Source: Phycisphaerales bacterium (GTDB taxonomy: Bacteria; Planctomycetota; Phycisphaerae; Phycisphaerales; UBA1924). Taken from it: a stretch of DNA of 64,000 nucleotides. The notes beneath the pieces were generated by a model. It did not search any database, was not told the origin of the DNA, and worked only from the letters and a program-made list of their open reading frames with translations. Below, one piece after another: positions 3,127-38,031 of this stretch. The translations under genes were made by a program, and so were the position numbers. The stretch lies in contig JADYYE010000107.1 of assembly GCA_020853815.1 (NCBI GenBank), positions 11,500 to 75,499 on the forward strand. The letters are read 5' to 3'. Position 1 is the first letter of the stretch, and every line of letters begins with the position of its first letter.

Positions 3127-3180
3127 TTTCACTCGGTTTTTCACGCGACCTTTCACGCGGCCCAACGCGGAGGTTTTCAC
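3127..3180 (+). promoter_or_regulatory. phased TTTCAC direct repeats upstream of small membrane-protein gene
   Basis: TTTCAC at 3127, 3139, 3151 and 3175 (spacing 12, 12, 24 nt), ending 3 nt before the ATG at 3183. A related CTTCAC lies at 3087. Confidence 0.3.
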
Positions 3181-25214: not shown

Positions 25215-25242
25215 TTGACAAGCAGGGAGGGGGGGGTATTCT
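25215..25242 (+). promoter_or_regulatory. candidate sigma70-type promoter with G8 tract in the spacer
   Basis: TTGACA (25215-25220), then a 16-nt spacer ending in GGGGGGGG (25229-25236), then TATTCT (25237-25242). This lies about 50 nt upstream of the ATG at 25295. Confidence 0.4.
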
Positions 25243-25294
25243 GCGCACGATCGTTGGGCCGGACTCCTGACGTACATTATTCAAGGGGAGTGTG

Positions 25295-25573
25295 ATGAAG
25301 CGTTCCTCTCGGGTGCTGAGGCTTGGGTTGTGCTTCATTGCGGGTTTGGCGGGCAGGGCGTTTGCCGACGAATGGCCGTTTCCCTGGCCGCCGGACCCCA
25401 CCCCGGGGGGTGCGCTGTGCGGGCACAACGCGGGGTGCTACGAGCGATCAAGCTTCTACGACTGCCGTCGCTGTTGTGAGGCAAATTGCGACGACAGTAA
25501 CAATTGCAACAATGCCTGCTGGAACCACTTCTGCCGCTTTAGTTCCTCCGATCCGACCTGTCCGCAAGCGTAA
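25295..25573 (+). CDS. small secreted cysteine-rich protein (10 Cys), module copy 1
   Basis: GGGGAG SD lies 4 nt before the ATG. Signal peptide ends AFA|DE. The mature ~68 aa align with 29961..30233 and all 10 Cys are conserved. Confidence 0.7.
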   Translation: MKRSSRVLRLGLCFIAGLAGRAFADEWPFPWPPDPTPGGALCGHNAGCYERSSFYDCRRCCEANCDDSNNCNNACWNHFCRFSSSDPTCPQA

Positions 25574-25642: not shown

Positions 25643-26257
25643 ATGCGGGGGCGTCGGCTCACGAGCGCGTTCGGTGCGTTGAGAGAGCGTCCGAGGCGGA
25701 CGATGGTTCTGTTCGGCGTCGTCCTGATCGGGGGTGGGTGGCTCGTCGGAAGCTGGTTGCTCGGGGAACGGCACCGGAAGGAGCGTGATGAGCGCATCCG
25801 CGCCGAGGCCGTTGAGTTCTCCAAGAAAACCGGTGCAGGTATGGACGCGTCGGTTGCGATCTGCACGATGGGCGTGGACCCCGACCAGCTCCAGAAGCTG
25901 CCGCTGGATGAGTTGAAGCGCTGGAGCATTTGGTACTCGGAGTTCGAGGGCAAGGATCGTCGCCGGGTGGCCGGATATTGCAACGCGCTGTTCCATCCCG
26001 CCTCGATCAGGAATTTCAGACAGGAACAGCTGGAGATCGCGCGGAACGCCACCAGGGAGATCATCGGAGAGTTCTGGAACGATCCCAAGATCATCGGGCA
26101 GGCCTATCTCATCGCGGTCGGCCTCGGGATGCGGGACGAGCCATACATTCAAGAAATGGCGCTCGATACGATTCAAGCCCCGGGGATGGCGCCCGAGTTG
26201 ATCAGCATGATCTCCCACTCCGTACTTCCCAAGAAGAAGAGCGAAAAGGAAAAATAG
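25643..26257 (+). CDS. single-pass membrane protein, module copy 1
   Basis: GGAG lies 6 nt before the ATG at 25643. TM helix MVLFGVVLIGGGWLVGSWLL. The block LEIARNATREIIGEFWNDPKIIGQAYLIAVGLGMRDEPYIQEMA is nearly identical in 30246..30842. Confidence 0.7.
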   Translation: MRGRRLTSAFGALRERPRRTMVLFGVVLIGGGWLVGSWLLGERHRKERDERIRAEAVEFSKKTGAGMDASVAICTMGVDPDQLQKLPLDELKRWSIWYSEFEGKDRRRVAGYCNALFHPASIRNFRQEQLEIARNATREIIGEFWNDPKIIGQAYLIAVGLGMRDEPYIQEMALDTIQAPGMAPELISMISHSVLPKKKSEKEK

Positions 26258-26259
26258 CC

Positions 26260-27393
26260 ATGCCGACGGGAAACCACTCGGCGCAACGTCACCACTCTCT
26301 CGCTCCGAGGGGGAGACCGCCGGGGCGCCGCGGGGGTTTCTCTCTAGTTGAGCTGCTGGTCGTGATCGGGATCGTTGCTGTATTGGTCGGGCGTACTCTC
26401 CCGGCGCTCGCGGCCGCGAAGGCGCGCGCCGCGCGGGCGGCGTGCTTGTCGAATCTCAGAGGACTCGGGCAGGCTGTTGCCCAGTACCGAAGCCGGCACC
26501 AGGATCGCTTCCCGGACGCGGACTTGCTCCCGGACATCCCGGCCGGAAAGCCCGGCGTGATCGAACCCCTCTCACCTTTCTTGGACTGCGCCCTTCCTCG
26601 CGTTGGCGCGGCGGGCGATGTCGAAACGGACGCCCCGTGGCGCTGTCGCTCCGACGCAGTCGTCGCGCGACGCTTCGGAATGAGCTACGAGTATGAACTC
26701 GCGACGCTGATCATGGCGTACAAACTTGGCGGCACGCAGAACCCGCACGCCAAAGTCGCGAACACGGCGGACACCGACGGCGGCCTGGTCCTCTTCTCGG
26801 ACGCAGGCGCCGCCGCGCGACTTGCCGCGGGTGATTCAGCCCCCTGGCACCGCGGCCCAAACGGAAAAGAGCGCAACTCGCTCTTCGCGGACGGCCGCGC
26901 GGATTGGGAGAAGAATTCGCCGACCCGCGCAACACGCCGCGGGCCGCCGCTTGCCCCGCGCCGACGACGGACGAACGGAGAGCCGATCCGCCTCCTCTTC
27001 GCCCTCAGTCCACGCTCGCCCTCGCCATCGGCCTCGACAACTCCAGCATCCGATCAACCGCCAAGAGCGCCTGCGCGCACCTTCTCCGGCACGCTGATCT
27101 GGTTCACAACCTTCGCCTTGCCGTCCTTCGACAACGCGCCCGCCATCGCTCATCGCGCCGACGAGCGGGAGGCATCGCGAACCCGCACACCTCGGGCGGG
27201 ACGGCGGATCAACATGCCAGCACTGGCGAAGAAAAGAGTCACGGCCCCCGGCGCGGGCACAACCCGCCAGACCACATGGTTCGTCAAATCGGAGACGTAC
27301 AAATGCCCGGCGTCGTCAAAGGTGAGGCCGCTGATCTGGCCGAACCCCGAACCGACCTGTTGTACCGCGCCGCCGGCGCGCGGCAGCGAGTAG
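26260..27393 (+). CDS. prepilin-type N-terminal cleavage/methylation protein (H-X9-DG-like), module copy 1, abnormally extended 3' end
   Basis: GFSLVELLVVIGIVAVLV leader/helix. Aligns with 30839..31501 up to ADGRADWEK (~26915). The frame then stays open for a further ~480 nt through the nadA fragment and the antisense of the next gene. Confidence 0.65.
   Translation: MPTGNHSAQRHHSLAPRGRPPGRRGGFSLVELLVVIGIVAVLVGRTLPALAAAKARAARAACLSNLRGLGQAVAQYRSRHQDRFPDADLLPDIPAGKPGVIEPLSPFLDCALPRVGAAGDVETDAPWRCRSDAVVARRFGMSYEYELATLIMAYKLGGTQNPHAKVANTADTDGGLVLFSDAGAAARLAAGDSAPWHRGPNGKERNSLFADGRADWEKNSPTRATRRGPPLAPRRRRTNGEPIRLLFALSPRSPSPSASTTPASDQPPRAPARTFSGTLIWFTTFALPSFDNAPAIAHRADEREASRTRTPRAGRRINMPALAKKRVTAPGAGTTRQTTWFVKSETYKCPASSKVRPLIWPNPEPTCCTAPPARGSE
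27004..27145 (-). pseudogene. duplicated, frameshifted fragment of the nadA 3' end
   Basis: By hand alignment it is about 90% identical to 28577-28720 (the last ~47 codons and stop of nadA). A 2-nt deletion breaks the frame. Confidence 0.8.
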
Positions 27394-28133
27394 AGATTCT
27401 CGCCGTCACCGACGATGAACGAATCGGTCGACGGCTGATACACCATCGCATCGGGGAGAGACCAGGCATGACCGCCATCGGAGACCTTGGCAATCGACCC
27501 GTCCGGCGCGATCGCCCAGACGCCGAGGTCTTCCAGCGTCTCGGTGCAGTACAGGCCGCCCGCCGCGAACTGGATGGAACGCACGACCGACAATTTGGGC
27601 GAGGAAACCAGCGTCTGCGCAGGGCTGCCGGCAAACAACAATTCAACATCGGCGCCGTCCCGTGCGTTACCGACAACCGCCGTTCCAGCGGTGAAATACG
27701 TGCCGTCCTTGTCAATGACCATGCTCGACTGATTGGGTGATCCGCTCGCGCTCGCCCAGAGGGTCGTTATGCCGGTCGTAATCTCGGTGCGATACACCGG
27801 GCCTTCCGTCGAGGCGTAGACATAGCCGTCGTACACATCAATCCCGTCGGGGTCTTCGGGTGTGATCGAGCCGAACGCGACCGCCGCGCCCCCGCCCGCC
27901 GGAATCCGATAAATATCGGCCGCCCCGTTGCTCGGTGAGTGGTGTCCGGCGAAAAGAACCCCCCCCGGCCCGAACGCGAGCTCGAACGGGTTCGTCGCCG
28001 TGGCATAGACGCTCGCCGGGTTGCCCAGCCAAGTCGGCTGAGCGCACGCCGAGCTCGTCACAAAGACACAAGCGCAAACAGCGATGAGCGCGCTTGAACG
28101 AGAAAACGATCCGCCATTATGATTCTTTCCCAT
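27150..28133 (-). CDS. secreted beta-propeller (NHL/SMP-30-like) protein with PEP-CTERM-like tail
   Basis: GAGGAG lies 8 nt before the ATG at 28133. Signal peptide LIAVCACVFVTSSACAQP. Repeated G..Y/L-strand motifs (LYCTE, LYSLP, LYVSD). C-terminus VPAPGAVTLFFASAGMLIRR resembles a PEP-CTERM sorting signal. Confidence 0.7.
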   Translation of the reverse strand: MGKNHNGGSFSRSSALIAVCACVFVTSSACAQPTWLGNPASVYATATNPFELAFGPGGVLFAGHHSPSNGAADIYRIPAGGGAAVAFGSITPEDPDGIDVYDGYVYASTEGPVYRTEITTGITTLWASASGSPNQSSMVIDKDGTYFTAGTAVVGNARDGADVELLFAGSPAQTLVSSPKLSVVRSIQFAAGGLYCTETLEDLGVWAIAPDGSIAKVSDGGHAWSLPDAMVYQPSTDSFIVGDGENLYSLPRAGGAVQQVGSGFGQISGLTFDDAGHLYVSDLTNHVVWRVVPAPGAVTLFFASAGMLIRRPARGVRVRDASRSSAR

Positions 28134-28577
28134 CTCTCTTCTCCTCAAAGGACACCGCCGAGACTACTGGGTGCTTGACCCCACTTCAAGCACAATTCCG
28201 CCCGGCTCTCCTTTATTTTCAGGATCACACAATCCCAATTCTCGGACCTTGGGACTTCGCTTTCGCCGCGTTGCGACGCGCGGGGGAGAGGTGCCGCATC
28301 AAGGGCGACCGGCCTACGCGCCCAGTTCACCGCTTCAGCTCTACGTCCTCGAGCCCCGCGCCTTCGGACGCCGGACCTGATACGGATTCTGCTTGGAAAC
28401 CGCGCGTGACTTGGGCTACCCCCACGCTCCGCGTGGGGTTCCTTCAGGCCCTCCAAGCGCATGTTCCAACGAGAATCCGTATGAGGCATTGCGAAGGTCC
28501 GGGTCGACGCAACGAGATCGCCCGTTCGCGCCGAACTCACTCGACCACTTGACCACTTTGCCACTTTTCGCTTGGCC

Positions 28578-29819
28578 TCAATCCACGCCCGCCTTCGCCC
28601 CCGGCCTCGACAACTCCAGCATCCGATCGACCGCCAACAGCGCCTGCTCGCGCACCTTCCCCGGCACGCTGATCTGGTTCACGATCTTCGCCTTGCCGTC
28701 CTTCGACAGGCCGCCCGCCAGGTGATCGAGCACCCACAACAAATGCGGCTCATCGATCCGGTACATCGTCGTGCACAGGCACTGACAATCGCTCAGGATG
28801 CGCACCTCAACGCCCCGTGCCGCGGCCTCTTTCGCAAGCCTTCCCACCAGGTGCGTCTCGGTACCAACCGCCCAGCGCGATCCCGGCGCCGACGCGCGGA
28901 TCGCCTGGATGATGAACTCCGTCGACCCCGACAAGTCCGCGAGGTCCACAACCTCTTTGCAGCACTCCGGGTGAACCAGGATCTTCACGCCCTCGCGCGT
29001 CGCGCCCGCCGCCTTCTCGCGCTCGTTTTCCTCGCGGATCGCGCGGCAGTGCTCCGGGCGGAACAGCTTGTGAACCGAGCAATGCCCCGCCCACAGGATC
29101 ACCTCCGCCCGCTCGATCGCCCCGCGCGATGAGCCGCCCAGCTCCTTGCCCGCGTGCGCCGCGCGCGGGTCATAGAGCGCCGCCCGCGTGGCGACATCGA
29201 TCCCCGCCGCCGCGGCCGTGTTCCGCCCCAGGTGCTGATCGGGCAGGAACAAAACCTTGATCTCCTCGCCCGGGCGCGTCGGGATCGTGCCGCCCGCGCG
29301 GGCCCACGCGAAGACCTGCCTTGCGTTCGAGCTGGTGCAGCACGCGCCGCCGTTCGCTCCGACAAACGCCTTGATCGCCGCCGACGAGTTCACATAGGTG
29401 ATGGGCACGACACGCGCGTTCAGTTTCGCGTCCTTGATCACGCGCTGGATCGAATCCCACGCCTCGACCGTGTCGTCGTACTGCGCCATGTCCGCCATCG
29501 AGCAGCCCGCGGAAAGATCGGGCAAGATCACCGCGACATGGTCGGGCGTCAGCATGTCCGCCGTCTCGGCCATGAAATGCACGCCGCAGAACACGACGTA
29601 CTTCACCGGGCGTTCCTTGGCGACGCGGGCGGCGACCTGCGAGAGCTTGAGCGAATCGCCCGTCGCGTCGGCGTGCCTCACGACCTGATCGGTCTGGTAG
29701 TGGTGGCCCAGGATGAAGAGCGAATCGCCGAGCTCCTTGCGGCGCGCGTCGATCCGGGCCGCGAGCTCGTCCTCGCTCAGCGTGCGATACACCTCGGGGA
29801 GTGATGGTTGCCAGAGCAC
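28578..29819 (-). CDS. nadA: quinolinate synthase NadA
   Basis: ILGHHYQ, VVFCGVHFMAETA, ILPDLSAGCSMADMA, CCTSSNA and HPEC blocks are NadA signatures. GTG start at 29819. Confidence 0.9.
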   Translation of the reverse strand: MLWQPSLPEVYRTLSEDELAARIDARRKELGDSLFILGHHYQTDQVVRHADATGDSLKLSQVAARVAKERPVKYVVFCGVHFMAETADMLTPDHVAVILPDLSAGCSMADMAQYDDTVEAWDSIQRVIKDAKLNARVVPITYVNSSAAIKAFVGANGGACCTSSNARQVFAWARAGGTIPTRPGEEIKVLFLPDQHLGRNTAAAAGIDVATRAALYDPRAAHAGKELGGSSRGAIERAEVILWAGHCSVHKLFRPEHCRAIREENEREKAAGATREGVKILVHPECCKEVVDLADLSGSTEFIIQAIRASAPGSRWAVGTETHLVGRLAKEAAARGVEVRILSDCQCLCTTMYRIDEPHLLWVLDHLAGGLSKDGKAKIVNQISVPGKVREQALLAVDRMLELSRPGAKAGVD

Positions 29820-29878
29820 GCGGGGATGGTAGTAATCCCGGGGTTAGACGGGATGCCAAACTCGACTTGACGGGTTGA

Positions 29879-29893
29879 GGGGGGGGGGGGGGG
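29879..29893. repeat. G15 homopolymer in the nadA / module-2 divergent intergenic region
   Basis: 15 consecutive G counted directly. It is preceded by TTGACG (29867-29872) and followed by ATAGGCT. Confidence 0.95.
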
Positions 29894-29960
29894 ATAGGCT
29901 CGGAGGAGGGTCGTGAACGATTCTGTGCGATAGACCAGCTTGTTGAAGGGACTCGAACTG

Positions 29961-30233
29961 ATGCAAACGCGAAACATCACCCGTCTCGGCCTGTGCTTTG
30001 CCGCTGGGATTGCGTGCTCCGCCATCGCCGACGGGTGGCCATATCCTTGGCCACCGGACCCGAACCCAGGCGGCGCTTTGTGCGGCTACCAATCCGGGTG
30101 CCAAGACAAGGCAGACTTCAACTCCTGCACGCGTTGCTGTGATACCCATTGCGACGCGAGTAATAATTGCTATAATGCGTGCTGGTTCTTCTTCTGCACC
30201 AACGGCAAGACCAGTGCCGGCTGCCCACAGTGA
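29961..30233 (+). CDS. small secreted cysteine-rich protein (10 Cys), module copy 2
   Basis: MQTRNITRLGLCFAAGIACSAIA|DG signal. The mature part aligns with 25295..25573 (WPyPWPPDPxPGGALCG...RCC...SNNC.NACW..FC...CPQ). Confidence 0.7.
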   Translation: MQTRNITRLGLCFAAGIACSAIADGWPYPWPPDPNPGGALCGYQSGCQDKADFNSCTRCCDTHCDASNNCYNACWFFFCTNGKTSAGCPQ

Positions 30234-30245
30234 CAGGATTAGACG

Positions 30246-30842
30246 ATGCGGACCAACGACCTCACGCGTGGCGCGTCTTCGCAGAGTCGGCGCCGAGTAG
30301 CGGTTGTGCTGGCAGGGTTGTCCTTGATCGCCTCCGGGTGGCTTGGCGGCCGGGCGATCCTTCGCGAGATGCACCGGCGGGATCGGGCGTCCCAAGTCCA
30401 CGCCGAAGCAGTTGAGTACGCCCAGAAAGTTCATGTGAGCATGGAGGTCGCAACCGCCATTTGTGAACTTTGCGGCGACCCCGGCGCGATTGCGCGCATG
30501 TCCCCGACGGAGCTGCGCCGGTTGGCGACGCGGTACGCGGACTTTGAAGGCCCCGACCGCGCACGCGTCGCCAGGTATTGCAACGGGCTGTTTCATCCCG
30601 CCTCCATTCGAGAGTTGAGTGACGAGCAATTGGAAATCGCCCGGAACGCCACCCGCGACATCATCGGTGAGTTCTGGAACGACCCCAAGATACTGGGTCA
30701 GGCGTACCTCGTCGCGGCCGGACTTGGTCTGAGGGATGATCCATACATCAAAGAGATGGCAAACCAGACCTTGCAAGAGCCCGGGCTTGATCCAACGCTC
30801 GCCGACACGGTCATCGTGGCCATTCTGCGCCCTCAGAAGTGA
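30246..30842 (+). CDS. single-pass membrane protein, module copy 2
   Basis: ATG lies 12 nt after the previous stop. TM helix VAVVLAGLSLIASGWLGG. Conserved C-terminal block shared with 25643..26257. Confidence 0.7.
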   Translation: MRTNDLTRGASSQSRRRVAVVLAGLSLIASGWLGGRAILREMHRRDRASQVHAEAVEYAQKVHVSMEVATAICELCGDPGAIARMSPTELRRLATRYADFEGPDRARVARYCNGLFHPASIRELSDEQLEIARNATRDIIGEFWNDPKILGQAYLVAAGLGLRDDPYIKEMANQTLQEPGLDPTLADTVIVAILRPQK

Positions 30843-31501
30843 CGCCGGGACCGGAGTACGCAGTGCACGCCGCCTCTCAAATGCTCGCTCGAATGGCGGC
30901 CCGCAGGCCGTCCTCCCAGCCCACTGGGTTCACGCTCATCGAGCTCTTGGTCGTCCTTGGGATCGTGGCTCTCCTGATCGCGATCTCGCTTCCCGCGCTG
31001 GCTTCAGCTCGCGCCACGGCCGCCAGAACAACATGCCTGTCAAACCTTCGAAGCCTGGGGCAGGCTCTTGCGTTGTACCGAAACGCCCACCAGGGGCTCT
31101 TTCCCGATTCCGCGATCCTGCCCGATCTTCCCGCCGGGAAGCCCGGACTGATCGAACCTCTCTCGGCACACATGGATGGCGCCCGTCCTCAACTCGGTCC
31201 GACGGGCGAGGTTGATGCGGCGCTCCCGTGGCGCTGCCCGCCGGATCGGGTGGTGGCAAACAGGTTCGGAATGAGCTACGAGTATGAACTCGCGGCCTTG
31301 GTCCAGGCCTACAAGATGGACGGCATCCAAAACGCCATGAGCCGAGTTTCACGCCAGGCCGACGACACGCGCCTGATCGTCCTCGCCGACGCGCCGATCT
31401 CCCTCCGATATGCCGCGGGCGATTCGACACCCTGGCATCACGGGCCGGACGGAAAGGACCGCAACGCCCTGCGCTCCGATGGCGGCGCGGACTGGAACTG
31501 A
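30839..31501 (+). CDS. prepilin-type N-terminal cleavage/methylation protein (H-X9-DG-like), module copy 2
   Basis: GTGA start/stop overlap with the previous gene (alternative ATGs at 30881 and 30893). [23 protein letters not shown]. The C-terminal WHHGPDGKDRNALRSDGGADW resembles the H-X9-DG region with longer spacing. Confidence 0.75.
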   Translation: MTPGPEYAVHAASQMLARMAARRPSSQPTGFTLIELLVVLGIVALLIAISLPALASARATAARTTCLSNLRSLGQALALYRNAHQGLFPDSAILPDLPAGKPGLIEPLSAHMDGARPQLGPTGEVDAALPWRCPPDRVVANRFGMSYEYELAALVQAYKMDGIQNAMSRVSRQADDTRLIVLADAPISLRYAAGDSTPWHHGPDGKDRNALRSDGGADWN

Positions 31502-34834: not shown

Positions 34835-36148
34835 GTGAGCGGCCACCCTTCCATCCCGCGCGACGAGGAGCTGCTCTGGCTCCTCTCCCTCACCTCGATC
34901 CCCGACATCGGCCCGATCCGGGCCGCCCGGCTGGTCGCCGCGTTCGGCTCGGCCTTCGCCGCCCTGCACGCCGCCCAGGCCCCGCTTGTTCAATCCCGGA
35001 TCATCAGCAAAAACCTTGCTGCGGCCATCGTGGCGGCACGCCCCGCCGCCGTCGAACACGCCAAGGCAGAGCTCGATCGCGCCCACTCCATGTCGCTCCG
35101 CCTCATCATGCGCAGCGACCAGGAATACCCCGAACTCCTCCGCCCCCTCCCCGACGCCCCGCCCCTCCTGTACGTCCGCGGCCAGTTCGACCCCGCCGGA
35201 CGCGATCGCTTCGCCCTCGCCATCGTCGGCTCGCGCGCCTGCTCGCACTATGGCATGGAACAGGCCGGACGCTTCGCCTCCGTCCTGGCGTCCAGCGGCA
35301 TCACCATCGTCTCCGGCGGCGCCCGCGGCATCGACACCGCCGCCCATCGCTCCGCCCTCCGTGCCGGCGGGCGAACCGTCGTCGTGCAAGCCTGCGGCCT
35401 CTCCAACACCTACCCGCCCGAAAACCAGAAGTTCTTCGACGAGATCATCGCCGAAGGCCGCGGCGTCGTGATCTCCGAACTCCCCCTCAAGACCGAGCCC
35501 AAATCCGAAAACTTCCCCGCCCGCAATCGCATCGTCTCCGGGATGAGCCTCGGCGTGCTCGTGATCGAGGCCGACCTCCGCTCCGGCTCCCTTATCACCG
35601 CGCGACTCGCCGCGGAGGAACATGGTCGGGAGGTCATGGCCCTCCCCGGGCGGGTTGACTCTCCCACCAGCCGCGGCTGCCTCGAGCTCATCAAGTCGGG
35701 CGGAGCGGCGCTCGTCACCGAGCCCGGCGATGTCATCGCGCTCATCGAAACTCCCGCGCGCCATCAGCACAACGGCACGCACGCCGATCGGTACGCGCTC
35801 GCCGAACAACAACCGCTCTTGCCCCTCGACGCATCGAGTGATTCACCTCCCGCGCCCGAGCCAGCGCCGACCAAGGGCCGCCGCGCCAAGCCGAACAAGG
35901 CACGCGACGAAGCAGACCACGCGCCAATCACGCACCCCTCGATCGCCCGCGCAGAGCACTCGATCGAGGAGGGTGCTGGTGCGCCGACTGATCCTGTTCT
36001 GCGAGCACTCACCGAACCGCTCACGCTCGACGCGCTCATGACCCGAACGGGCCTGGACGCGGGAGCTCTCCGCGCGTCCCTGACCATGCTGGAAATCCAG
36101 GGAAGGGTCCGTCGCGACGGCCCGCACTTCGAAAAAACCTCGAAATAG
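34835..36148 (+). CDS. dprA: DNA-processing protein DprA (Smf)
   Basis: AIVGSRACSHYG, IVSGGARGIDTAAH, FPARNRIVSG and LVIEADLRSGSLITA are DprA Rossmann-fold signatures. C-terminal wHTH-like tail. Confidence 0.9.
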   Translation: MSGHPSIPRDEELLWLLSLTSIPDIGPIRAARLVAAFGSAFAALHAAQAPLVQSRIISKNLAAAIVAARPAAVEHAKAELDRAHSMSLRLIMRSDQEYPELLRPLPDAPPLLYVRGQFDPAGRDRFALAIVGSRACSHYGMEQAGRFASVLASSGITIVSGGARGIDTAAHRSALRAGGRTVVVQACGLSNTYPPENQKFFDEIIAEGRGVVISELPLKTEPKSENFPARNRIVSGMSLGVLVIEADLRSGSLITARLAAEEHGREVMALPGRVDSPTSRGCLELIKSGGAALVTEPGDVIALIETPARHQHNGTHADRYALAEQQPLLPLDASSDSPPAPEPAPTKGRRAKPNKARDEADHAPITHPSIARAEHSIEEGAGAPTDPVLRALTEPLTLDALMTRTGLDAGALRASLTMLEIQGRVRRDGPHFEKTSK

Positions 36149-36271: not shown

Positions 36272-36300
36272 TTGACGTGGGGGGGATGTGCGGCTATCTT
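36272..36300 (+). promoter_or_regulatory. candidate sigma70-type promoter
   Basis: TTGACG (36272-36277), then a 17-nt spacer containing G7, then TATCTT (36295-36300). It lies in a lower-GC stretch with no convincing ORF before about 36669. Confidence 0.4.
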
Positions 36301-36668: not shown

Positions 36669-37616
36669 ATGGATGGATCGATGACGCCCGTGATCTGCCT
36701 CGGCTCTGGCGAGTATCGCCAGGAGTTTTCCCCCGCGCCCGGGGACGGCGGCCCGTGGTCGCTGCTTCGCGCCCTGGGCGCCTGCCTCCGCGACCTGGCC
36801 CTCGACGCCGGCCGCCTGTGGTCACCCGCCGAATCGGACGAATTGGTCGGGTCGCGCGCCTCGGAAAAGGATTTCGATGTCGTGTGCGCCGAGTGCGGCG
36901 GGCTCTCCGAGTGCGAATGCAACGCGGCGATCAACGCCGAAGCGACGATGACCGCGGGGACGGTCACGGGGTTGGCCGCGCTGGCTCCGGCGGTTCCGGT
37001 CTCGGTTTCCCCGGTGGGAGTTTCGGCCATCGAAGTCGGGGCTTCCGATCCCGATCGCGCGCTACGGATCGCGTCGCGCTTGGGAGTGTTGGTCGCGTGC
37101 GAGCACCAGATGGTGGCCCAGCGTTCGGGCATCTGGCGGGCCCTCTCCGCCCTTCGCCCCGCGGCCTCGGCGTCGCTCCGCCGCGCCATCGAACGCCACT
37201 GGATCGACAGCCGTCCCGCGGATTCAGCAGTACATCAGGCTTTCAGGCCCGGGGCGGCGTTCGCCACCGGCGCGTGTTCGGAATGTTCGCCCACGGAATC
37301 GGGAGATTCCGGGGCGTGGGACTCGTCGGGACGCCGCGGGGCGACCCCGACCACCAAGGACGAGGATGGCCCGGCCAACTCCGGCCCGGGCGGATTCTCT
37401 GGGGAGCGTTGCCATGAATCTCACACCCAAGCAGCTTCGGATCCTGCAGCTCATCCGCGACTGGCGCGTGCGCCGGGGCTATTCCCCGACGATGCAGGAG
37501 CTCGCGGACGAGATCGGCGTCAGCAAGGTCACGGTCTTCGAGCACGTCGAAGCCCTCATCAAGAAGGGCGCCCTCATCCGCGAGCCCAACAAGGCACGCT
37601 CTTTGTCGATCGCTGA
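36669..37616 (+). CDS. hypothetical protein (3' end uncertain, overlaps lexA start by ~200 nt)
   Basis: Strong GC3 bias and a protein-like sequence from MDGSMTPVICLG to about 37230. There is no stop until 37616, so the true end is unknown. No domain recognised. Confidence 0.35.
   Translation: MDGSMTPVICLGSGEYRQEFSPAPGDGGPWSLLRALGACLRDLALDAGRLWSPAESDELVGSRASEKDFDVVCAECGGLSECECNAAINAEATMTAGTVTGLAALAPAVPVSVSPVGVSAIEVGASDPDRALRIASRLGVLVACEHQMVAQRSGIWRALSALRPAASASLRRAIERHWIDSRPADSAVHQAFRPGAAFATGACSECSPTESGDSGAWDSSGRRGATPTTKDEDGPANSGPGGFSGERCHESHTQAASDPAAHPRLARAPGLFPDDAGARGRDRRQQGHGLRARRSPHQEGRPHPRAQQGTLFVDR
37275..37288 (+). promoter_or_regulatory. candidate LexA operator: TGTTC-N4-TGTTC direct repeat
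   Basis: TGTTCggaaTGTTC lies 126 nt upstream of the lexA ATG. It has the GAAC/GTTC-type half-site and N4 spacing but in direct orientation. The palindrome GGAATCgggaGATTCC follows at 37295-37310. Confidence 0.3.
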
Positions 37617-38031
37617 CGGCATCGCCGTCCCCGACGAATCGCGCCCCCTCCGCTTCCCCCTGGTCGGCAAAATCGCCGCCGGCAATCCCATCGAGCGCGT
37701 CCCCGACATGGAAGAGATCGACCTGGTCGACGTGATCGGCTCGGGCACGCGCGGCGATTCCACCTTCGCCCTCAAGGTCGAGGGTGAGTCCATGCGCGAC
37801 GAAGGCATCCTCGACGGCGACTACGTCCTCATCGAGCGCACCCAGGTCGCGCAGAACGGCGACAAGGTCGTCGCCCTCCTGCCCGATGGCTCGACCACCC
37901 TCAAGACCTTCTTCAAGGAGGACGACCACATCCGCCTCCAGCCCGCCAACCCCGCCTTCGACCCCATCCGCGTCAAGTTCTGCCAGGTGCAGGGCATCGT
38001 CAAGGGCGTCGTCCGCCGCTACGGGCGCTGA
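37414..38031 (+). CDS. lexA: LexA repressor
   Basis: N-terminal wHTH (LTPKQLRILQLIRDW..GYSPTMQELADEIGVS), cleavage-site region VGKIAAGNPIE, catalytic Ser (GESM) and Lys (TLKTF). Confidence 0.92.
   Translation: MNLTPKQLRILQLIRDWRVRRGYSPTMQELADEIGVSKVTVFEHVEALIKKGALIREPNKARSLSIADGIAVPDESRPLRFPLVGKIAAGNPIERVPDMEEIDLVDVIGSGTRGDSTFALKVEGESMRDEGILDGDYVLIERTQVAQNGDKVVALLPDGSTTLKTFFKEDDHIRLQPANPAFDPIRVKFCQVQGIVKGVVRRYGR

Follow-up and report, generated by a model that had tools for sequence, protein, structure and literature searches.

A poly-G tract in a promoter spacer as a candidate phase switch of a pilin-like three-gene operon in an uncultured Phycisphaerales bacterium

A run of fifteen guanines stands between a TTGACG and a TAGGCT hexamer in the 64-kb stretch of Phycisphaerales DNA analysed here (the window), ahead of a three-gene module and close to the divergent nadA gene, and the question that this locus raises is whether the run is part of a promoter and whether its length could set the expression of the genes behind it. 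The sequence of the studied region, the promoter region of what we call module 2, is cgacTTGACGggttgaGGGGGGGGGGGGGGGaTAGGCTcgg, and its elements are listed together with the neighbouring features in Table 1. Direct reading agreed with the first-pass annotation in the coordinates of TTGACG, G15 and TAGGCT and in a hexamer-to-hexamer spacer of 22 nt (29873-29894), as well as in a tract that begins 60 nt from the start codon of nadA. The tract is real and far beyond chance. A homopolymer census of the window (67.5% G+C) showed that G15 is the sole homopolymer longer than 8, the next-longest being G8 at 25229-25236 and C8 at 27959-27966, and the counts of G/C runs drop about 0.22-fold per extra base, so that about 3.5e-5 runs of 15 or more would be expected in 64 kb. 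With its fifteen G the tract also lies well within the lengths (about 8 or more G/C) at which such runs are counted as hypermutable.

Table 1. Features of the nadA-module 2 region and of module 1 in the window, and layout of the corresponding promoters in public contigs
Feature	Position	Strand	Sequence or description	Spacer (nt)	Basis or remark
nadA	28578-29819	-	quinolinate synthase, GTG start		Pfam NadA, E 1e-79
Candidate nadA promoter	29831-29859	-	TTGGCA (29859-29854)-N17-ATTACT (29836-29831)	17	inferred
-35 box, module-2 promoter	29867-29872	+	TTGACG		read directly; conserved in homologues
Non-G part of spacer	29873-29878	+	ggttga		read directly
G15 homopolymer	29879-29893	+	variable spacer element		read directly; length differs in homologues
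Single base between G15 and -10 box	29894	+	A		read directly
-10 box, module-2 promoter	29895-29900	+	TAGGCT (family consensus TAnnCT)		read directly
Shine-Dalgarno-like element	29945-29951	+	GAAGGGA, 9 nt before ATG		AAGGG core kept in L004 and module 1
Module 2, gene 1	29961-30233	+	90-aa secreted Cys-rich protein		signal peptide, 11 Cys in mature part
Module 2, gene 2	30246-30842	+	198 aa, N-terminal membrane helix and all-helical domain		sequence; AlphaFold2
Module 2, gene 3	30839-31501	+	type IV pilin-like / pseudopilin-like		Pfam N_methyl, NCBIfam TIGR02532
Module-1 promoter, window	25215-25242	+	TTGACA (25215-25220)-agcaggga-G8 (25229-25236)-TATTCT (25237-25242)	16
Paralogous module 1, genes	25292-25573, 25643-26257, 26260 onward
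Module-2 promoter, window			TTGACG-ggttga-G15-a-TAGGCT	22
Module-2 promoter, L002 (Logan SRR35571890)			same flanks, G10	17	same strain, 100% identical
Module-2 promoter, L004-L009			TTGACG-gggtgaa-G8-a-TAGCCT	16	one strain in six samples, ~93-96% identical
Module-2 promoter, L011			TTGACA-gagat-G11-TAAACT	16	~81% identical; promoter scan 10/12
Module-2 promoter, L010			contig starts 5 nt before G14-TAGACT	at least 19	~89% identical
Module-1 promoter, second lineage (L013-L016)			TTGACA-ggcgggga-G8-TATTCT	16	paralogue

The 'second module' that had been proposed downstream of the tract is real and consists of three genes, the unit being ended by a convergent 2-hydroxyacid dehydrogenase gene. 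The protein encoded by gene 1 had no match in Pfam or NCBIfam and belongs to an unannotated family, with 13 representatives at E<=1e-3 among 1.84e9 proteins, that shares the motif PPDPxPGGAxCG...GC...CxRCC...SNNCxNACWNxFCRF...GCP. Gene 2 matched nothing in Pfam or NCBIfam and no sequence in the PDB; its family is very rare (only 5 clusters among 5.8e9 proteins), its AlphaFold2 model was all alpha with a pLDDT of 73.5, and the fold search returned weak ARM/HEAT-like matches only, the best with an E of 0.065. Gene 3 carries a prepilin-type N-terminal cleavage/methylation domain (26.3 bits for N_methyl with a cut-off of 21.2, and 25.1 bits for TIGR02532 with a cut-off of 16.3), and it starts either at the GTG at 30839 or at the ATG at 30893, the latter being the start called in the public contigs L001 and L004-L007. 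The window holds a paralogous module 1 as well, whose gene 1 and gene 2 proteins are 56 and 52% identical, respectively, to those of module 2. Protein-pattern scans derived from the gene-2 alignment found no homologous module in the genome and metagenome contig collections, a DNA pattern made of the left flank and G8 had no match in metagenome contigs, and exact-protein look-ups had no record for the Cys-rich peptide, the two NadA start variants or the window module-1 protein. These genes are flagged here as a rare, unannotated three-gene cassette, whose function is likely tied to the cell surface or to secretion and exposed to fluctuating selection.

Three minor observations concern the genes themselves. 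The Cys-rich genes (29961-30233 and 25292-25573) are uncalled in most public contigs. The pilin-like gene of module 1 (26260-27393) has lost its stop codon in the window strain, the TAG of L013 being TCG in the window (26917-26919), and its ORF extends by 158 codons to 27393. Finally, a sigma70-like site, TTGCGA-N16-TATAAT with a TG extension (10/12 matches, 30149-30176), lies inside gene 1, 70 nt before the gene-2 ATG, where it overlaps the codons of the conserved C-D-x-S-N-N-C-x-N-A-C stretch. This site may be a by-product of the Asn codons or a real internal promoter and, if active, could allow transcription of genes 2 and 3 whatever the state of the tract.

Public contigs carrying gene 2 or its relatives were compared with the window by reading the region upstream in each of them. 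The results showed that a common layout, TTGAC[AG] followed by 5-8 nt, G(n) and TAnnCT, is shared by the paralogue in the window and by orthologues in three other lineages. The -35 hexamer is conserved as TTGACG or TTGACA in L002, L004-L009, L011, module 1 of the window and L013-L016 (a match at 5-6 of 6 positions), the -10 boxes of the homologues (TAGCCT, TAGACT, TAAACT and TATTCT) are invariant at positions 1, 2, 5 and 6, and the G run abuts the -10 box or sits one base away from it in both modules 1 and 2. The non-G segment is 5-8 nt long in the homologues and differs in sequence (gggtgaa, gagat, agcaggga and ggcgggga), and the -35/-10 spacing is 16-17 nt in every complete sequence, the window excepted. 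Adding up non-G and G bases gives 8+8=16 in L004-L009, 5+11=16 in L011, 8+8=16 in module 1 and 7+10=17 in L002, and the module-1 sum of 16 is found in two lineages in spite of differing non-G bases. In the distant comparisons (L011 or module 1 against the rest) the 5' leaders are 50-56% identical, which is close to random, and what is kept despite this divergence is TTGAC[AG], the uninterrupted G run, TAnnCT and the ribosome-binding region. The hexamers and the G run are kept amid nearly random leaders, and non-G bases (5 to 8) and G's (8 to 11) compensate for each other in a sum of 16-17; the block is the phylogenetic footprint of a promoter of the sigma70 type with a spacer consisting mostly of G. 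In addition, the G run has remained unbroken since a duplication whose age is reflected in protein identities of 52-56%, and we take this as a sign that the run as such is under selection.

In the 430 kb of DNA searched, matches to TTGACN-N(0-12)-G(6 or more)-N(0-4)-TANNNT were confined to these promoters and to the second, unrelated case described below. A promoter scan picked out the module-1 promoter with 10/12 matches, with 0 expected in shuffles, and scored L011 equally; it missed the module-2 promoter, TAGGCT matching TATAAT at 3/6 positions, and a literature search for a description of a planctomycete promoter consensus found none. Together, the conserved boxes and the 16-17 nt spacing support in silico the suggestion of the first-pass annotation that the tract sits in the spacer between the putative -35 and -10 elements of the module-2 promoter, and they provide a testable sigma70-type promoter model, TTGACR-N16/17-TAnnCT, for a group with poorly described promoters. 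Another -35, the weak TTGAGG that is formed with the first two G of the tract (29875-29880), was considered and rejected: it leaves a spacer of 14 nt at G15, is not conserved in L004 (GTGAAG) and would give a spacer of 16-18 nt only at G17-G19.

The length of the tract varies across related MAGs (15, 10, 8, 11 and 14), and the tract is therefore not invariant under the comparison that had been proposed as a check on it. The closest comparison is with contig L002, whose 1,874-nt alignment to the window is free of mismatches and has a single gap, of 5 nt, which is the tract itself (G10 vs G15); the within-strain length difference rests on this one comparison. A tract shorter by about 4-5 G, which had been anticipated to restore a spacing of 17-18 nt, was in this way found to exist, as a G10 allele of the same strain with a spacer of 17 nt. 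The longest tracts are also those with out-of-range spacers (G15 with 22 nt in the window, G14 with at least 19 nt in L010). Short alleles look stable at the consensus level, with G8 in 6/6 samples of strain L004-L009 and, at module 1, in five assemblies (the window and four others) from two lineages whose neighbouring spacer bases differ, and this stability speaks against a very fast switch.

We regard it as distinctly improbable that the difference in length is technical, i.e., that there is one true length and that either G15 or G10 arose from misreading or misassembly of the homopolymer. It is true that homopolymers are error-prone, that their lengths in assemblies can be wrong, that 5 of the 12 public module-2 contigs end within 100 nt of the tract, a sign of the difficulty that assemblers have there, and that poly-C of plainly artefactual origin closes some other MAG contigs in the background set (L087); but a discrepancy of 5 nt far exceeds the usual consensus error, and a 15-mer run is below the k-mer size of assemblers and so not collapsible. 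Moreover, G8 was reproduced exactly in six independent samples, which indicates that pipelines report homopolymers consistently, G14 and G11 occur in other lineages, and the flanks are contiguous in all assemblies, with no chimeric join. An assembly join or a two-colour poly-G artefact was likewise rejected, since the junction and a G tract are present at the same position in eight other independent public contigs; in L002 and L004-L009, which come from different samples and pipelines, the junction with the G tract is internal. Two further contigs of the window strain, L001 (JGI 3300055001) and L003, are 100% identical to the window and begin downstream of the tract.

As a separate observation, the five contig ends near the tract lie at +100 (L001), -21 (L009), -5 (L010), -11 (L011) and about +20 (L012), a 69-kb JGI contig among these starting at position 29993 of the window. 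Such ends fit coverage loss, graph ambiguity or heterogeneity at the homopolymer and are only suggestive. In practical terms, poly-G tracts of this kind fragment metagenome assemblies and hide adjoining small genes.

Conservation and variation of the tract also bear on the main biological rival of a switch, which is a fixed functional element. Here the G run would itself be the conserved promoter element, for example a regulator site or a stiff stretch of G/C by which promoter strength is tuned, changes in its length would be incidental, and the window allele would then simply have decayed or be neutral. In its favour, every homologue and the paralogue keep an unbroken run of 8 or more G, G8 is constant across the six samples of one strain and at module 1 in two lineages, and there is a precedent in the C-stretch of the Bordetella fim promoters, which acts together with an activator site (PMC1891110). 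We nevertheless consider it unlikely: run lengths span 8 to 15 G, with the number of non-G bases compensating so that the total stays at 16-17, which points to spacing as the conserved quantity, G10 vs G15 on an identical background is the expected product of a mutable tract, and no partner regulator is evident in the module.

The first-pass annotation also noted that G15 is long enough for an intramolecular three-tetrad G-quadruplex; the reading that such a structure forms in the non-template strand or in the RNA and regulates transcription has very little to recommend it. In a quadruplex-aware fold G15 does formally fold as GGG-G-GGG-G-GGG-G-GGG, but this fold was modelled for an isolated single strand and not for duplex DNA. 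The homologous promoters with G8, G10 and G11 are too short to form three tetrads and keep the same layout, so that the structure is not conserved, and a promoter formed by these hexamers would place the tract ahead of the transcription start, leaving it out of the RNA.

The reading that we favour, and hold to be probable, is that the hypermutable poly-G spacer is a transcriptional phase or volume switch of the three-gene operon. RNA polymerase would use the TTGACG and TAGGCT hexamers, and the sigma70-type promoter TTGACG-N(6)-G(n)-A-TAGGCT would drive an operon of the Cys-rich peptide, the helical membrane protein and the pilin-like protein. Since the spacer equals n+7, slipped-strand gain or loss of G at replication would shift the -35/-10 distance. 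About G9-G11 would give the 16-18 nt that RNA polymerase needs and set the operon to ON, as might be the case for the G10 allele in the other sample of the same strain, and the G15 of the window, with its 22 nt, would set it to OFF or very weak; the window likely carries an OFF allele. A run of 10-15 G would be expected to gain and lose units at a high rate, making the state heritable and in principle reversible, and the tract would then be a contingency locus governing a structure that is secreted or on the cell surface, and its switching would be frequent, reversible and useful. This ON/OFF reading draws on spacer arithmetic and on the established behaviour of sigma70 promoters and of slippage at simple sequence repeats (SSRs). 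SSR phase switches usually control secreted or surface products, and the cargo of the operon is of this type (a signal peptide and a prepilin N-terminal domain), which we count in favour of the switch. On the other hand, G15 is 4-5 steps off the ON range, farther than in a finely poised switch, and may be a dead allele whose length simply drifts.

Switches built on a homopolymer in the promoter spacer are textbook knowledge for Neisseria, Haemophilus and Bordetella and are interpreted there as adapting the bacteria to host immunity. The genes porA and opc of Neisseria meningitidis show the same kind of phase variation through a homopolymer in the core promoter. In Haemophilus influenzae a repeat in the divergent promoter spacers of hifA and hifB controls pilus genes via the -35/-10 distance. 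The length of a poly-C/poly-G tract is known to set the level of transcription from the core promoter of meningococcal fetA (PMC13293289) and from the promoters of Bordetella fim2, fim3 and fimX (PMC1891110, PMC10172299). In the Bordetella fim loci the tract, C7 to C19, stands just upstream of the -10, and single-base changes toggle the fimbrial type (PMC1891110, PMC10172299).

The present locus resembles porA, opc and fetA in having a G/C homopolymer of about 8-15 between the -35 and the -10 of a sigma70-type promoter and in having tract lengths that differ among otherwise near-identical isolates. In Neisseria the spacer length sets high, intermediate or no expression of a surface-protein gene, and here we infer such an effect from the sequence. 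Unlike Neisseria, which is a host-adapted pathogen and switches an outer-membrane protein, the organism here is a free-living uncultured member of the Phycisphaerales and the cargo is a three-gene operon. With the Bordetella fim loci it has in common that a homopolymer is retained immediately before the -10 in each of the paralogous pilus-subunit or pilin-like loci; in Bordetella, however, the C-stretch separates the site of the activator BvgA (the 'fim box') from the -10 in promoters without a good -35, whereas the promoters described here have a good and conserved -35 (TTGACG/TTGACA) and no known activator, and no fim-box-like element was identified at the module promoters. The likeness to hifA/hifB lies in a spacer repeat within a divergent intergenic region next to pilus-type genes, the difference being that hifA/hifB have a TA dinucleotide repeat in the overlapping spacers of both divergent promoters, while a mononucleotide run is found here in the module promoter only, outside the candidate nadA promoter. 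The type of switch is already known, and what would be new are the phylum and the free-living lifestyle: a literature search found no earlier report of phase variation in Planctomycetes or Phycisphaerae. The same layout in uncultured free-living Phycisphaerales would show that contingency loci shape the surface structures of environmental bacteria.

The divergent arrangement also brings in nadA, on which the tract, as C15 on the other strand, had been suggested to act. Such control is in our view highly improbable. The tract and nadA do share a 141-nt intergenic region, with the short distance to the nadA start codon given above, but a candidate nadA promoter, which stands back to back with the module-2 promoter and has the same bases in L004, lies wholly between the tract and nadA, so that the length of the tract leaves its geometry unchanged; counted from the likely nadA start site, the tract is found some 55-69 nt upstream and is not part of the candidate core promoter. 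The closest relatives of the NadA protein are Phycisphaerales MAG proteins of 93-96% identity, which marks the source of the window as an uncultured member of the Phycisphaerales, and they come from loci where nadA has no module and no tract ahead of it. The tract rather travels with the module, the paralogue promoter at 25215-25242 not being beside nadA, and a housekeeping gene of NAD biosynthesis would be an unlikely target of stochastic switching. An Rfam search found no family at threshold anywhere in the window and, near the tract, one low-complexity sub-threshold match, which gives no support to an NAD+ riboswitch (nadA motif) ahead of nadA.

A second poly-G promoter, unrelated to module 2, came from the background set, 315 kb of other Phycisphaerales DNA that was collected with NadA and has hardly any G/C runs of 10 or longer. 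In contig L055 (MAG SJ233; NadA 69% identical) the sequence TTGACG-ttt-G13-cgg-TATCTT-gaagca-ATG (3139-3178; spacer 19) precedes another prepilin-domain gene, and since the first base of the start codon is 7 nt past the -10 box, a leaderless message is implied. The 94%-identical orthologue in L098 (346-383) has G8 and a spacer of 15, and a 37% homologue of the pilin-like gene in L099 has a plain TTGACA-N17-TAAATT-N7-ATG in the same place. The case of L055 and L098 indicates that the poly-G spacer device is not confined to one cassette, and poly-G spacers before pilin-like genes may be widespread in Phycisphaerales. Their spacers of 19 and 15 nt, neither of them optimal, were counted against a phase switch.

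Whether poly-G spacers go beyond this and are a general, selected contingency device in free-living Phycisphaerales, by which pilin-like or secreted cassettes are switched on and off stochastically, is more doubtful than the switch at module 2, although we hold it to be a real possibility. The support so far comes from two unrelated gene families and a promoter-like site with G7 at 36272-36300, and the benefit of such a device may be, for example, escape from phages that use these structures or bet-hedged attachment. If true, SSR phase variation would extend from host-adapted pathogens to environmental Planctomycetota.

Some minor observations on repeats were made in the same DNA. The site at 36272-36300 reads TTGACG-t-G7-atgtgcggc-TATCTT, with the G run in a spacer of 17 nt, and heads a stretch of about 1.2 kb that is flanked by a dprA-like (34835-36148) and a lexA-like gene (37366-38031) and in which no convincing ORF and no Rfam match were found. 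Poly-C runs in two Phycisphaerales MAGs, namely C18, C20 and C11 beside a scaffold gap in L022 (3522-3600) and C13 and C36 at the contig start of L087 (1-55), look like assembly artefacts rather than biology. In L099 (1081-1170), straight after the plain promoter, about 15 tandem ATGGAC/ATGGGC hexamers (MDMDMD...MGMG) stand at the 5' end of the ORF, and this in-frame repeat could provide a variable copy number or multiple start codons. Within the window, the C8 at 27959-27966 is a coding-strand G8 covering codons 61-64 (P-G-G-V) of the minus-strand gene 27150-28148, which encodes a signal-peptide protein with weak NHL-repeat similarity and is held in a segment (27146-28566) that is absent from the related strain L004/L013; this coding G8 is a candidate for a variable tract of the frameshift type.
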